DNA of 64,000 nucleotides, from assembly GCA_000165425.1 (NCBI GenBank), contig CT867986.1, positions 434,001-498,000 of the forward strand. Direction: 5' to 3'. The number at the start of each line of letters is the position of its first letter. Positions within the stretch are counted from its first letter, which is position 1. This stretch comes from Paramecium tetraurelia (Eukaryota). This document shows positions 31,603 to 36,508 of the stretch, one piece after another. A program made the position numbers and the translations under genes. The notes under the pieces were generated by a model. That model was not told where the DNA came from and searched no databases. It worked only from the letters and a program-made list of their open reading frames with translations.

Positions 31603-32072
31603 TCAAAGAACTGAACCAGCAGCTGATGCTATCTTTGGCCATAAATCAGCAGCTTCCTTTCCAACTGGGCCTGTAATTGCAGATCCTTTCATTTCACCCT
31701 TTGGATTGATAATAACTCCAGCATTATCTAACAATTAGTTTCATAATTAACCTTCAAAGTAGATGTAATATCCTTCTCGACGTCTGTATGGTTTTCTTTG
31801 TCTTACAACAACAGCTTACATGACTAAGATTAAATTAATCAATTACCCTTCTTTCTAAGTGCTGGCTTACCCTATTTGACAGAGCACAAAACCATATCAC
31901 CAATGGAAGCAGATGGTAATCTGCTCAAATGTCCCTTAATTCCGAATGTTGAAATCACGTAGATATTTTTTGCTCCTGAGTTATCAGCGCAATTGAGAAC
32001 AGCACCGACATTACAAGCAAGTGTAATTCTCAATTTGATACCAACTTGACCTCCTCTTCCTCTCTTTGACAT
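31603..32072 (-). CDS. RPL23: 60S ribosomal protein L23 (uL14)
   Basis: [64 protein letters not shown]; two tiny introns. Confidence 0.98.
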
Positions 32073-32509
32073 TGATAATTTTTATTAATTTTTAAAATAG
32101 ATTTGTGAATAATTTAAGTCTTAATAATCTATAGATCAAATACATATAATAAAACCAATAAATTTACTATTGAAGAAGGAATTGAATATAGAAGTCAGGC
32201 TAAAAGGTGATCAAGCACAGGGATTATGAGAATTTATTAAACTCTTAAAATGTTAGTTTAAGAAAGATTAACAATGCAATATCATATAAGATAATTGTGT
32301 TATAAGCTGAGATAATTGCAACTGATTGATCTATATATTAATTCCTACCTCCTTAAAGAGTAGAATTAGTTTATATTCAATTTCAATCAATATGAAACTA
32401 CTTCATTATAAATACATAAGGTTAAATTAGACTAGTAAGATCTATAAGAAGAGAATGATGAATTTCTTTATAAGTTTATTTCTGAAATTTTTAATGTTTA
32501 TTTCATTTG

Positions 32510-33867
32510 ATGAAATAATTATAGTAATTATAATCATAAGAGGAGAAGACATGCAAAAGGTTTTTGGTGGCTAAAAGTGTTTCTTAAGAACATAGAATTA
32601 AAAGCAATGACAGTAGACCTAATAACATCTTTATGCCAACTTATGATGAGTATCTGTTATAAAATGGGCCAAAATTTACAGAAAATGGGGACTTGGTTTA
32701 ACATTCAATTGTAGGTAAGAGCGAGTGGTTTAATAAACAAAAACTTGGGAAAAGACTTCAATTTGATGATTTGGCCTCTAAGCAATTACCATTTCATAAA
32801 GGAATAATTAGATAGGACACAGCAGATAAAGGATCTGCACCAAAGAGTGAGTAAAAAAGCACAAAATTTGGGAGTAGTACGAAGTTAAAGAAAAATCATA
32901 ATAACAATTTAACAACAAAAAATCAACTAATTGAAGAATTGAATAATATTATGTAGAGAATAAAAACCAATTCAGATGTAGAAAAAGGGAAAGTAGAGTA
33001 GGTATGCTTTTGAATTAATTAAGTTGGAACCGTAATTGAAAAGGGTGTTGACAAAAGAAACTAGAGTTTTAAGTAAACATGAGGAGACCGAAAAATACTG
33101 GAACTACTTTACTGAAAGACAGGCTTGTTTATTAAATAGGGATAGGATTAGTTCTCAATTGTTGCAGGCAGAAAAATACAAATTAAAAAATGATACTGCA
33201 TAAGTATTTAATGTACTCAATACTGAATACGAAAGAATTGCAGTCAATAATTGGTAAAAAACGTTGAGGAAATTTGAAAATTCTAAATCCAAGAAAATCA
33301 AAGTAAGAGGAAAAGAAATGATTATTGAAAAGGAATAAAAAGAAGATTTTATAGTTGTATAAATGATTCAATAAATAGGGTTCTGATTTGCCTAGAGCTT
33401 TTAGTGAACAGTCCTTAGTGGGTAGTCGTTTAGAATATATATAAAAGCCAGAGGTTAAAGTTATAAATGACCCATTGGCTTTTAAGAGTTTCAAGAGCAA
33501 TAAGTACTTACTTCAGAGATTGGATGAAACTCAAGATTATTTTTAAAATTCTTATATGATATCTCCGGATAAAAGAAATGATTTCGATAAACTAATTATT
33601 TTAGGCAAGAGTTAGTTTGAAATTGAGAAGGAAATGCTCTTGAATGATGGTGGAGACAGTACGGGTGTGTATCGTAAAGACATTGATAAACCTCCAGATG
33701 AATATACAAAAGAGTAAATTTATGAACAACAATATGCAAATAAAGTTAAGTTAATTCTACCATAATTAGGAAAGTGGAAATCTAAAAAGTTAGGCCCATT
33801 AACAAATTAGAGTGAGAAATCTGAATTGAGTGATGAGTGGGTTGCTGATGATATCCTTAAAATCTGA
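32510..33867 (+). CDS. Hypothetical protein, possibly MYCBPAP/FAP147 N-terminal-like
   Basis: Code-6 ORF with FLVAK, GPKFTENGDLVQHSIVG and YWNYFTERQACLLNR..AEKYK; resemblance is from memory, not computed. Confidence 0.4.
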
Positions 33868-33904
33868 TAATTTATATATATATATAGATATATTATTAAT
33901 AAAT

Positions 33905-35791
33905 TCATCCAAATTAAATTGCAATACTACCAGGCATAGATCTGTGGATCATCACTTCATTCTCTTCAATCATCATACTCTTAAATTCTTATCCGAAGTA
34001 AGCATCCTTATTTTCATTAGTAAAACAAGCTTTTTATCCTTCAAGTTTTGGTTCTTTAAATAAGCATATTCTCAATTAAGCTGAATTTGGGTATCTAATG
34101 TCTAACAAAGCAATCTAATAATTTATATATATATAATTACTTCACACTTTCCCATAGATCCTAACAACTCAAATTATGCATTCATAAAATCCATTTGATT
34201 GCATATTACTGATGTGAAATAAAACACTTCTCCTTCACAAGCATTCCATAATAGTACTACAACACATTTGGCTGTATCAGTTAAATAAATAGGATATTCA
34301 GCTGATGCAGACATTCCTTAATTTATTAAGCATATCTCTGGCTTATCTAAGAATAAATAATCATTATGAAATGAGGCAATAACTATATCTTGATTTTTAT
34401 CTCTTTTGAATTTACTAACTCCTAATATAACAGTTTTATCGCTGTGAAATTTAACTGAATTAGCTTAAACATCAGGTAAGTCCATTCCAATTTTTTATAT
34501 TGGATTTTTATTCCCACAAATTTATGTACTTGCACCACTCCAATCACAATCTTTAAGGAAATTCAAACAAACTTTCCTTTATTCAACCCATTAACCTATT
34601 TCCCTTTTATTTGTTTCACATTTTCCATTCCTTTCTCCCTATAATTACAATAAATTGCAATAATCTGTTAAGGCCTTTCTATGTCAATTAATACAAATAA
34701 TTACTTTAAATTTTATCCGATTTTTTAATATTCCTTGACTGATGATAATTATCCTTTTCCTTCCGATACTAATTCGCTTATACTTTTTAATGTATATCTA
34801 ATAGGAGTTGGTTCCAATTCAGTTTCTCTTAGCCAATCTTTAGGTGTATTCTCTGTACTCTAGGGTCCAATTTCAATCGTGAAACTTTGAGTACTTAGTT
34901 TAGACACATCACTATATGCCTTGGCTTCTTGTTCCTTTGGTAATATTTATTACCCTATCACGCCTTTTAGAAGGGCAGATGTGATTGTAGCTGCTTATTT
35001 TAGATCGATTTCTTTAAACTTCTTTTAATCAAAATCATCGACGATGGCAGGTGGTAGAGTATATACATAACCTACTTTAGATCCAAGGATTATATCAGTT
35101 GCATAATGTGTTCCAAAATTACTGAGAAATTCCAAATATTAAGGTGCTGAATATTCAACAGGTAGAGCAGATAATTGGTCGATAAAACTTTGATGAAATT
35201 CTGCTAATTCAGGAACTTGAGTAATTTGAGCTATTTAACAGGTCGCCATAGAAATCACAAAGGTGGCAGATGTTTACTCTATTTTTTATTGCATGTGGTT
35301 GAATTCAGAGGAAGCTGTGAATGCCCATGGAGTAATATCAATATTAGACACTAAATTTACTCTATATTGTTAGAGATAACATACCCAATAAAAGAACTCA
35401 TATAGTTTTGAATTTGCTCTGTATTTTTGATAACAAATGACTCGAAGTTGTATTTGCACCCTTTCTTTGTTATGACATTTAAATTGTCTGGAATTTTATG
35501 TCTTCCATCTGAAGTTACTTATTTTTTGCTATACGAAGTCAGAAAGATGTTTCTCCCTGTGAATCCTGGGTCTGAAGTTTCTCTCCAGGTTATTGGATTG
35601 CCCAAGAATAAATTATACCCACTAAAAATGAAATCAATATTTGCAATGGCCTTAGGATCTGCAGCTTAAAAATTACCTCCGTCGTGGATTTCTTGCATCA
35701 ATAAATGTTATAGATTCTTCTACTATTTCTCGTTTATTTCTAAGAATCCGCTTGCTATAACAATAACAATGAGAAGTAATGCAGTTCTCAT
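33905..35791 (-). CDS. Secreted MACPF (perforin-like) protein with Cys-rich beta-rich C-terminal domain
   Basis: Signal peptide MRTALLLIVIVIASG; SGYNLFLGNP..DPGF; MACPF signature FGTHYATDIILGS; W..EPTPIRYTL; ALTDYC; three tiny introns. Confidence 0.88.
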
Positions 35792-35824
35792 AAATAAAAA
35801 CGTATTATAAATTAATAATATAAA

Positions 35825-36508
35825 ATGGACTAGATGGATAATTAGTTTTAGGAAAAATTCTAATAGTTGTTAAAACTCAAAGAAATCTATACTACCAGAA
35901 ATGTCTTACCTGAAAGACTGCAAAGATTGAAACTGGTAGATATCAATTTCTAACTCAAATACATCCGATAAAAACAATAAAATAGATTTAACCTCATTCT
36001 TAACAATTCAATCGCTTCTCAAAATATACCAAAAAAACAAGCAACCGAAAGAAGTTTCTCCAATTAATTGAGTCATCTGAATATTGCTGATTAATAAAAT
36101 ATTTGTTTAAGTTGCGATAAGTATATTTTTGAAAAGAAAGTAAAATTACTTTGCCAAAACAAATCTAGTCACAACTACCATTCAAATTGCTTAGCTAATA
36201 TTATGAAACAGCAACTGGCTAATTAGTGTATAAGTTTCTAATGCTTATGTAAAAGTTAAATAAATAATGGATAAATCACAAGATAAAAAATATTAGAATT
36301 AGAAGTTTACATAAATAGATTAATGATTAATTAGTTAAATTATTTAAAAACCCATTACTAGTTTATCAAATAATGTGCAAATAAAGATTGTGATTTTTTT
36401 TGGATCTATAAATAACAGCAAAGGCAAATCAGATCACGTTCTAACTCCCCCGTTAAATCTTACAAAATCACTTATGCTAATTATTGTCCAGATTGTAGAT
36501 TTTTATGA
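35825..36508 (+). CDS. RING-like + IBR-like zinc-finger protein
   Basis: CLSC..LC..HNYHSNCL..CLC followed by CANKDC...YCPDC*. Confidence 0.6.

Follow-up and report, generated by a model that had tools for sequence, protein, structure and literature searches.

A transcribed MACPF gene of the free-living ciliate Paramecium tetraurelia encodes a putatively secreted perforin-like protein with an unclassified cysteine-rich C-terminal module

Perforin-like proteins (PLPs) play a key part in egress and cell traversal in Toxoplasma and Plasmodium, and these apicomplexans share with ciliates their membership of the alveolates. The APC-beta domain at the C terminus of apicomplexan PLPs is described as a unit of ~263 amino acids built from three direct repeats of ~80 residues with 3 × 4 conserved cysteines (PMC5943054, PMC6294395). 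It is reported to bind membrane lipids and, in the pore of PvPLP2, to stand on the bilayer (PMC5943054, PMC6294395, PMC13529673). Other MACPF proteins are described as carrying C2 or MABP domains as their C-terminal membrane-targeting domains (PMC2881412). A full-text literature search, with ParameciumDB and subscription journals outside its reach, found no study of a MACPF protein from Paramecium or any other ciliate. Here, we analyze a MACPF gene in a 64,000-nucleotide stretch of Paramecium tetraurelia macronuclear DNA (assembly GCA_000165425.1, contig CT867986.1, positions 434,001 to 498,000; hereafter, the window). A preliminary description, made from the sequence alone, had correctly identified the gene, which is an ordinary member of the MACPF family, already present in the public annotation, and belongs to a free-living ciliate that feeds on bacteria.

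The gene occupies the minus strand from 35791 to 33905 and comprises four exons with 603 codons and a TGA stop (Table 1). It was read with the ciliate nuclear code (NCBI table 6), in which TAA and TAG encode glutamine and TGA is the stop. The G+C content of the window is 24-35%. Under the bacterial code, no long open reading frame (ORF) is found at the site of the gene; the ciliate code opens three long frames between 35791 and 33905 on the minus strand. Enumerating all GT..AG introns of 15-119 nucleotides that restore one uninterrupted frame gave 1530 combinations, which include one set of three 23-26-nucleotide GTA...TAG introns that encodes 603 residues. Short GTA...TAG introns are typical of Paramecium. 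The spliced product is letter-for-letter identical to a public 603-amino-acid protein (P0003), named both [quoted passage not shown] and “MACPF domain-containing protein”. The interval given in the preliminary description is thus exactly one annotated gene.

The gene is genuine, transcribed, and spliced, and RNA confirms introns 2 and 3. We compared three oligo-dT RNA sequencing runs carrying the same species label (X20, X21, and X22) with positions 33700-36000. All three runs cover approximately 33931-35778, and depth is near zero beyond. First mates over the gene map to the plus strand only, which fits a single transcript strand; the ORF places this transcript on the minus strand. At intron 3, reads ending at 34114 (5, 5, and 3 reads in X20, X21, and X22, respectively) continue with the 13 letters that follow 34141, and on the reverse side, 4 reads in X22 end at 34141 and carry letters from across the intron. 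These split read ends prove the removal of intron 3. At intron 2, loose ends lie at 34678 and 34705 (3 reads each, run X21); the letters before 34705 match across the intron exactly, and those behind 34678 match except for 2 letters. RNA depth dips in the bin of intron 1, for which no split read is listed. This intron is the sole short GT..AG intron that joins both frames and yields P0003.

Word-indexed searches returned only P0004 of Paramecium bursaria (54-58% identity) and a truncated, degenerate entry from Paramecium sonneborni (P0005). A metagenome scan with N-terminal patterns gave 484 pattern matches, which led to three loci. The first (L001) is ~85% identical, shares the same three intron positions, and has a complete C-terminal module that is 88-91% identical. 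The second (L002) is a divergent orthologue (38-50% identity), also with a complete module, which is 38-49% identical. The third (L003) is an environmental relative whose MACPF domain is 27% identical over residues 49-357, and its DNA has 40% GC, which indicates that it comes from a different organism.

The sequence has a complete MACPF domain whose closest solved relative is the MACPF domain of TgPLP1, and suggests, with a probability somewhat better than even that applies jointly to the docking and pore formation considered below, that the protein is a secreted, soluble member of the perforin family. The N-terminal hydrophobic leader is present as previously described, with a maximum mean Kyte-Doolittle hydropathy of 3.06 over the 12-mer LLLIVIVIASGF. 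It is the sole stretch with a 19-mer mean hydropathy above 1.6 and the sole transmembrane-like stretch in the protein, and P0004 has a similar leader. That the leader alone is strongly hydrophobic fits a secreted soluble protein with a signal-peptide-like N terminus and no other membrane anchor. Downstream, the Pfam MACPF profile (PF01823) matches over positions 2-214 of 214 with an E value of 1.2e-40 (140.4 bits versus a cut-off of 21.5), and exon 2 alone gives an E value of 4.9e-40 (138.4 bits). The HMMER search and the leader thus bear out the earlier classification as a secreted perforin-like MACPF protein.

The apicomplexan affinity that had been read from the N-terminal entry also has support. 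A GY..GNP..DPGF entry motif is present as described, is kept in every relative recovered (P0004, L001, L002, and the distant L003), and falls within the region aligned by the orthologue profile to the MACPF domain of TgPLP1. A single-sequence search of PDB chains returned MACPF proteins only, within residues 80-335 only. The orthologue profile matches 25 distinct solved MACPF chains at E ≤ 0.01. The best of these is TgPLP1 (5oup_A; E 3.4e-13), aligned over nearly the whole domain (profile 37-328 versus chain 5-325), followed by C9, perforin-1, C6, and C8. Although exon 1 alone has no PDB match at E ≤ 10, the rank of TgPLP1 as the top profile match lends support to the apicomplexan look of the N-terminal entry.

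The MACPF signature is given as Y/W-G-T/S-H-F/Y-X6-G-G in PMC3667788, a source that also reports another MACPF protein with F in the first position. It is a consensus, not a rule. In the Paramecium protein, the signature reads F-G-T-H-Y-X6-G-S, with the G-S form that had been pointed out before; it fits the consensus at five of the seven specified positions and does not match the strict pattern. The G-S form is common to P0004, L001, and L002, and L003 has G-A. Its presence in P. bursaria, L001, and L002 marks it as a trait of the clade, not as damage.

Several observations weigh against a pore-forming protein. The signature departs from the consensus (F for Y/W and G-S for G-G), and a scan of the beta-amphipathic moment gave no clear mark of the two expected transmembrane hairpin regions (TMH1 and TMH2). 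AlphaFold2 models of the full-length protein (16 alignment rows; mean predicted local distance difference test score, pLDDT, of 44.4) and of residues 356-603 (9 alignment rows; pLDDT 46.6) are too poor to interpret, be it for the bent central beta-sheet with two flanking helical clusters that characterizes MACPF domains or for the fold of the C-terminal module. Furthermore, some MACPF proteins are known to be non-lytic. A non-lytic protein involved in adhesion or signaling, or serving as a structural or secretory-granule component, would be in keeping with the clade-wide replacement of the second Gly of the G-G pair and with the presence of the non-lytic astrotactin-2 among the profile matches (E 1e-6). 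The best profile matches, however, are all to lytic proteins (TgPLP1, C9, and perforin-1; E 1e-11 to 3e-13), and the full Pfam MACPF profile is matched. The secreted, anchor-less layout with a C-terminal accessory domain is also the one that lytic members have. We therefore regard a non-lytic role as unlikely.

A secreted MACPF protein that docks through its C terminus, oligomerizes, and forms a beta-barrel pore appears rather more probable, by analogy with the family. The C-terminal module would dock the protein on a target membrane by binding either a surface glycan or the head group of a lipid. Lateral assembly of the MACPF monomers into arcs or rings would follow, and in each monomer two clusters of helices would refold into beta-hairpins, inserting as a large beta-barrel pore. 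Considering only the biology of the organism, the target would most likely be the microbial envelope, either of ingested cells in the lumen of the food vacuole or of cells around the ciliate in the medium. Since Paramecium is free-living, egress or cell traversal cannot be the role of the protein; the roles in prey killing or extrusome defence that had been proposed are speculation.

The part of the protein after the MACPF core consists of a short linker and a C-terminal module with a predicted beta-rich character. L001 and L002 keep all 12 of the cysteines in this part (two in the linker and ten in the module), and the conservation of the module extends to P0004, L001, and L002, with identities of 38-91%. 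Residues 356-603 match no Pfam family at E ≤ 10, a threshold at which the HMMER filters already drop most Pfam matches above about 0.1. The orthologue profile of the C-terminal part has no PDB sequence match at E ≤ 10, and Foldseek against the PDB with the C-terminal model (pLDDT 46.6) gave no match at E ≤ 0.001, the best reaching E 0.12 with a TM score below 0.2. Searching 1.84 billion representative proteins with the exon-3 translation (HMMER) returned six matches. Three of these are genuine: they are pieces of true relatives, 55-92 residues long, and evidently represent ORFs the size of single exons in ciliate DNA that was not spliced. The other candidates (P0007, P0010, and P0011) were rejected as repetitive low-complexity artefacts. 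Scans with the C-terminal alignment confirmed none of 67 pattern matches in prokaryotic genome contigs and none of 72 in viral contigs, and the ESM Atlas gave no usable match to, and contains no model of, P0003 residues 385-603 or P0004 residues 345-570. At the level of sequence, the module is thus found only in Paramecium and close relatives and is almost an orphan.

The environmental relative L003 suggests what this position in the protein may be for. L003 shares the GY..GNP..DPGF entry motif and also the KKAL-x2-YC...C linker with the Paramecium protein, and carries a Ricin_B_lectin domain (PF00652; E 3.6e-9, above cut-off) where Paramecium has the orphan module. An alignment of the two C termini with hhalign covered only the 25 columns of the linker, and weakly (E 0.093). 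We therefore rejected a reading of the Paramecium module as a diverged counterpart of the ricin-B trefoil in L003. The shared linker places the lineage-specific module, with its ten cysteines, at residues 376-603. The lectin at the same junction points to a swappable module, with the position probably holding an exchangeable targeting domain.

The preliminary description had likened the module to beta/gamma-crystallins, on the basis of four Cys-flanked units of which the first and last were said to fit a Greek-key pattern, and had proposed receptor or Ca2+ binding. The crystallin features of each Greek key are given as Y-x4-Y/F-x-G and N/D-N/D-x-x-S/T-S, and the signature is said to be highly degenerate in divergent members (PMC3551895); the latter leaves room for a module of crystallin-type Greek-key motifs forming a domain that binds a receptor or depends on Ca2+. 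P0003 does contain each of the four Cys-flanked strings that had been quoted. The last unit does fit F-x4-L-x-G (FKEPKLEG, residue 553), but the first fits only as L-x4-W-x-G from Leu396, the gap from F395 being five residues and not four. With a relaxed Greek-key hairpin, both LKDCDWSG...ANSVKF and FKEPKLEG...FKSMMI fit, with a Ser ~20-26 residues on, and the Gly is kept in three of four orthologues for LKDCDWSG and in all four for FKEPKLEG. The divergent L002 has one strict match (FETCDYQG), and a fragment (P0008) reads FENCDYTG at the same place. The predicted beta-rich character of the module, from AlphaFold models of pLDDT 44-47, would also suit a crystallin.

The relaxed pattern, however, does not rise above chance. 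It occurs twice in the 248-residue C terminus versus 0.97 times expected (2000 shuffles, P = 0.26), and the two middle units lack the Gly. The strict Y-x4-Y/F-x-G is absent from P0003, P0004, and L001, the match in L002 being the only one. The Ca2+ motif N/D-N/D-x-x-S/T-S is absent from all four orthologues. Not every crystallin domain binds Ca2+, and the missing motif bears mainly on the Ca2+ claim. Pfam searches with P0003 and P0004, with each of the four exon pieces, and with pieces of L002 gave no Crystall-type match at thresholds from E ≤ 1 to E ≤ 10, and the lack of any PDB match to the C-terminal profile counts against a crystallin as well. Internal repeats were sought by local alignment of three ~80-residue segments against 500 shuffles, and the pairwise scores lay within those of the shuffles (reached by 412, 175, and 407 of 500). 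Comparing slices of the alignment with hhalign gave repeat probabilities of 0.1-0.7% from a very shallow profile (effective number of sequences, Neff, about 1.3), which makes the absence of repeats weak evidence. The beta/gamma-crystallin label, together with the Ca2+ binding attached to it, is thus unsupported at the level of sequence, and we consider a crystallin-type module very unlikely. The module is best treated as an unclassified accessory targeting domain, for which another or new beta-rich fold is the default.

A different proposal is that the module is a highly diverged APC-beta double-layered beta-prism, in an architecture that would date to the common ancestor of ciliates and apicomplexans. 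This is somewhat more attractive than a crystallin. Among solved structures, TgPLP1 is the nearest to the MACPF part, both lineages are alveolates, and the module is joined to the MACPF domain through a short linker, as in PLPs. The region past the MACPF core has 248 residues and 12 conserved cysteines, compared with the ~263 residues and 3 × 4 cysteines of APC-beta. In addition, [VI]CL recurs at residues 391, 470, and 550, with spacings of 79 and 80, close to the ~80 residues of the APC-beta repeat. Yet the third of these units would be only 54 residues long, the cysteine spacing in the Paramecium C terminus is irregular, and two of the 12 cysteines belong to the linker shared with the lectin-bearing L003. 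No three-fold internal repeat was detected in the module, whereas APC-beta repeats are plain in sequence. The C-terminal profile found nothing in the PDB at E ≤ 10 even though the bank holds the 1120-residue PvPLP2 chain 9XDA, in which APC-beta is modeled; this chain was matched by the orthologue profile through its MACPF part only. The statement in the preliminary description that the C-terminal part is unlike APC-beta therefore holds for sequence similarity, and we regard common descent with APC-beta as a rather improbable reading. If it were true, the complete PLP architecture, a MACPF domain with a disulfide-stapled membrane-binding prism, would already have existed in the free-living alveolate ancestor. 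Its ancestral use would then probably have been as a weapon against prey or a digestive tool, which parasites later adapted to egress and traversal.

Table 1. Positions in the window of the MACPF gene of P. tetraurelia and of the features of its product.
Feature	Position	Strand	Basis
Whole coding region, 4 exons, 603 codons + TGA	33905..35791	-	Exon model, identity to P0003, poly-A RNA
Signal-peptide-like leader, residues 1-17 (MRTALLLIVIVIASGFL)	35741..35791	-	Hydropathy
MACPF entry motif FSGYNLFLGNPITWRETSDPGF, residues 56-77	35561..35626	-	Read directly
Intron 1, 23 nt, GTATG...ATAG	35362..35384	-	Frame, P0003, same position in L001
Pfam MACPF match, residues 149-361, spans intron 2	34660..35324	-	PF01823
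MACPF signature variant FGTHYATDIILGS, residues 218-230	35079..35117	-	Read directly; F for Y/W, G-S for G-G
Intron 2, 26 nt	34679..34704	-	Loose RNA read ends
Linker after MACPF core, residues 356-375 (KALTDYC...GKC), Cys362 + Cys375	34618..34677	-	Pattern common with L003
Lineage-restricted C-terminal module, residues 376-603, interrupted by intron 3, ten Cys conserved, predicted beta-rich	33908..34617	-	No family match, orthologue conservation
Intron 3, 26 nt	34115..34140	-	Loose RNA read ends

The RNA reads over the gene, together with one DNA contig set, carry minor alternative bases at 18 positions (window 33947-35124) in ~10-60% of reads. L001 was considered as their source and rejected, as it matches at only 5 of the 18. 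A second, closer copy of the gene or strain heterogeneity in those samples is possible. Four X21 reads end at 35039 and continue with 10 unplaced letters (AACTACTCCA); such a second copy may be their source too. Over 34316-34469, the depth of RNA reads is low.

Both neighboring ORFs on the opposite strand, at 33367-33867 (+) and 35705-36508 (+), are transcribed: reads at 33700-33853 and 35856-36000 have their first mates on the minus strand. The ORF of the downstream neighbor ends ~38 bases from the stop codon of the MACPF gene, which shows how tightly genes are packed in this genome. Elsewhere in the window, at 31839-32135 (-), lies an ORF that we take to be ribosomal protein uL14 (L23)-like.

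The relatives show some irregularities of their own. L002 (positions 491-2345) has six tiny introns (~17-29 nucleotides) versus three in P. tetraurelia, and beyond its module an acidic low-complexity tail runs off the contig. The P. bursaria entry P0004 is ~40 residues short: directly behind ICLFKETKMGG, it closes with a tail (…KVYIQEHDDRGA) that bears no relation to the module. The annotation seems to have overlooked the final intron or exon, and a real truncation is less likely. The P. sonneborni entry P0005 (344 amino acids) has neither signal peptide nor entry motif, has a damaged signature (FETHY...), diverges in the TMH2 region, and ends shortly past the linker, as would befit a pseudogene or else a gene that was poorly modeled. 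In L003 (positions 1-1465), the MACPF and Ricin_B_lectin domains lie in different frames, with the switch near 918-930 at a run of seven A's (ttgaaaaaaagc). This is probably an assembly indel, but may be a real frameshift or an intron.

The gene is already in the public annotation and holds nothing surprising for the MACPF family; its accessory domain is uncharacterized. An expressed MACPF protein of a free-living ciliate with TgPLP1 as its nearest solved relative nevertheless offers a tractable non-parasitic system, amenable to RNA interference by feeding and to easy microscopy. Such a system could address what pore-formers did before parasitism. Closely related MACPF cores are coupled to different modules at their C termini, which are APC-beta in the parasites, a ricin lectin in L003, and the orphan module in Paramecium. 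As the Paramecium module has no recognizable relatives, its structure and ligand would extend the list of membrane-targeting domains.

Among known systems, beta/gamma-crystallins (Protein S, spherulin 3a, and lens gamma-crystallins) resemble the module in being beta-rich, as the module is predicted to be, and in two local relaxed Greek-key stretches. They differ from it in that the module has ten cysteines, matches nothing in Pfam or the PDB by sequence, lacks the strict signature in P. tetraurelia as well as the Ca2+ motif, and has no detected repeat symmetry. Perforin-2/MPEG1 shares the MACPF domain and is a weak match to the orthologue profile (E 3.7e-5). It is delivered into the phagocytic pathway against engulfed bacteria and would be the most plausible analogue of a food-vacuole role. 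Unlike MPEG1, which possesses a transmembrane anchor and a P2 domain, the Paramecium protein has no second hydrophobic segment, and it is much closer to PLP1, C9, and perforin-1. No Pfam C2 or MABP match was found in the Paramecium C terminus at E ≤ 10, although the C2 domain of perforin and the MABP beta-prism of Plu-MACPF resemble the module in their C-terminal position and presumed membrane-targeting job, as described in PMC2881412.

The two closest comparisons are with L003 and with the apicomplexan PLPs. L003 has a homologous MACPF domain with the same entry motif and linker, and differs from the P. tetraurelia protein in having a Ricin_B_lectin beta-trefoil in place of the orphan module. 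In comparison with the apicomplexan PLPs (TgPLP1 and Plasmodium PLP1-5), the Paramecium protein lacks a long N-terminal domain, and its module has neither detectable APC-beta similarity nor three direct repeats. The overall plan is nonetheless alike: in both alveolate lineages, a signal peptide, as predicted here, is followed by a MACPF domain, a short link, and a Cys-rich, putatively beta-rich C-terminal domain of ~250 amino acids.

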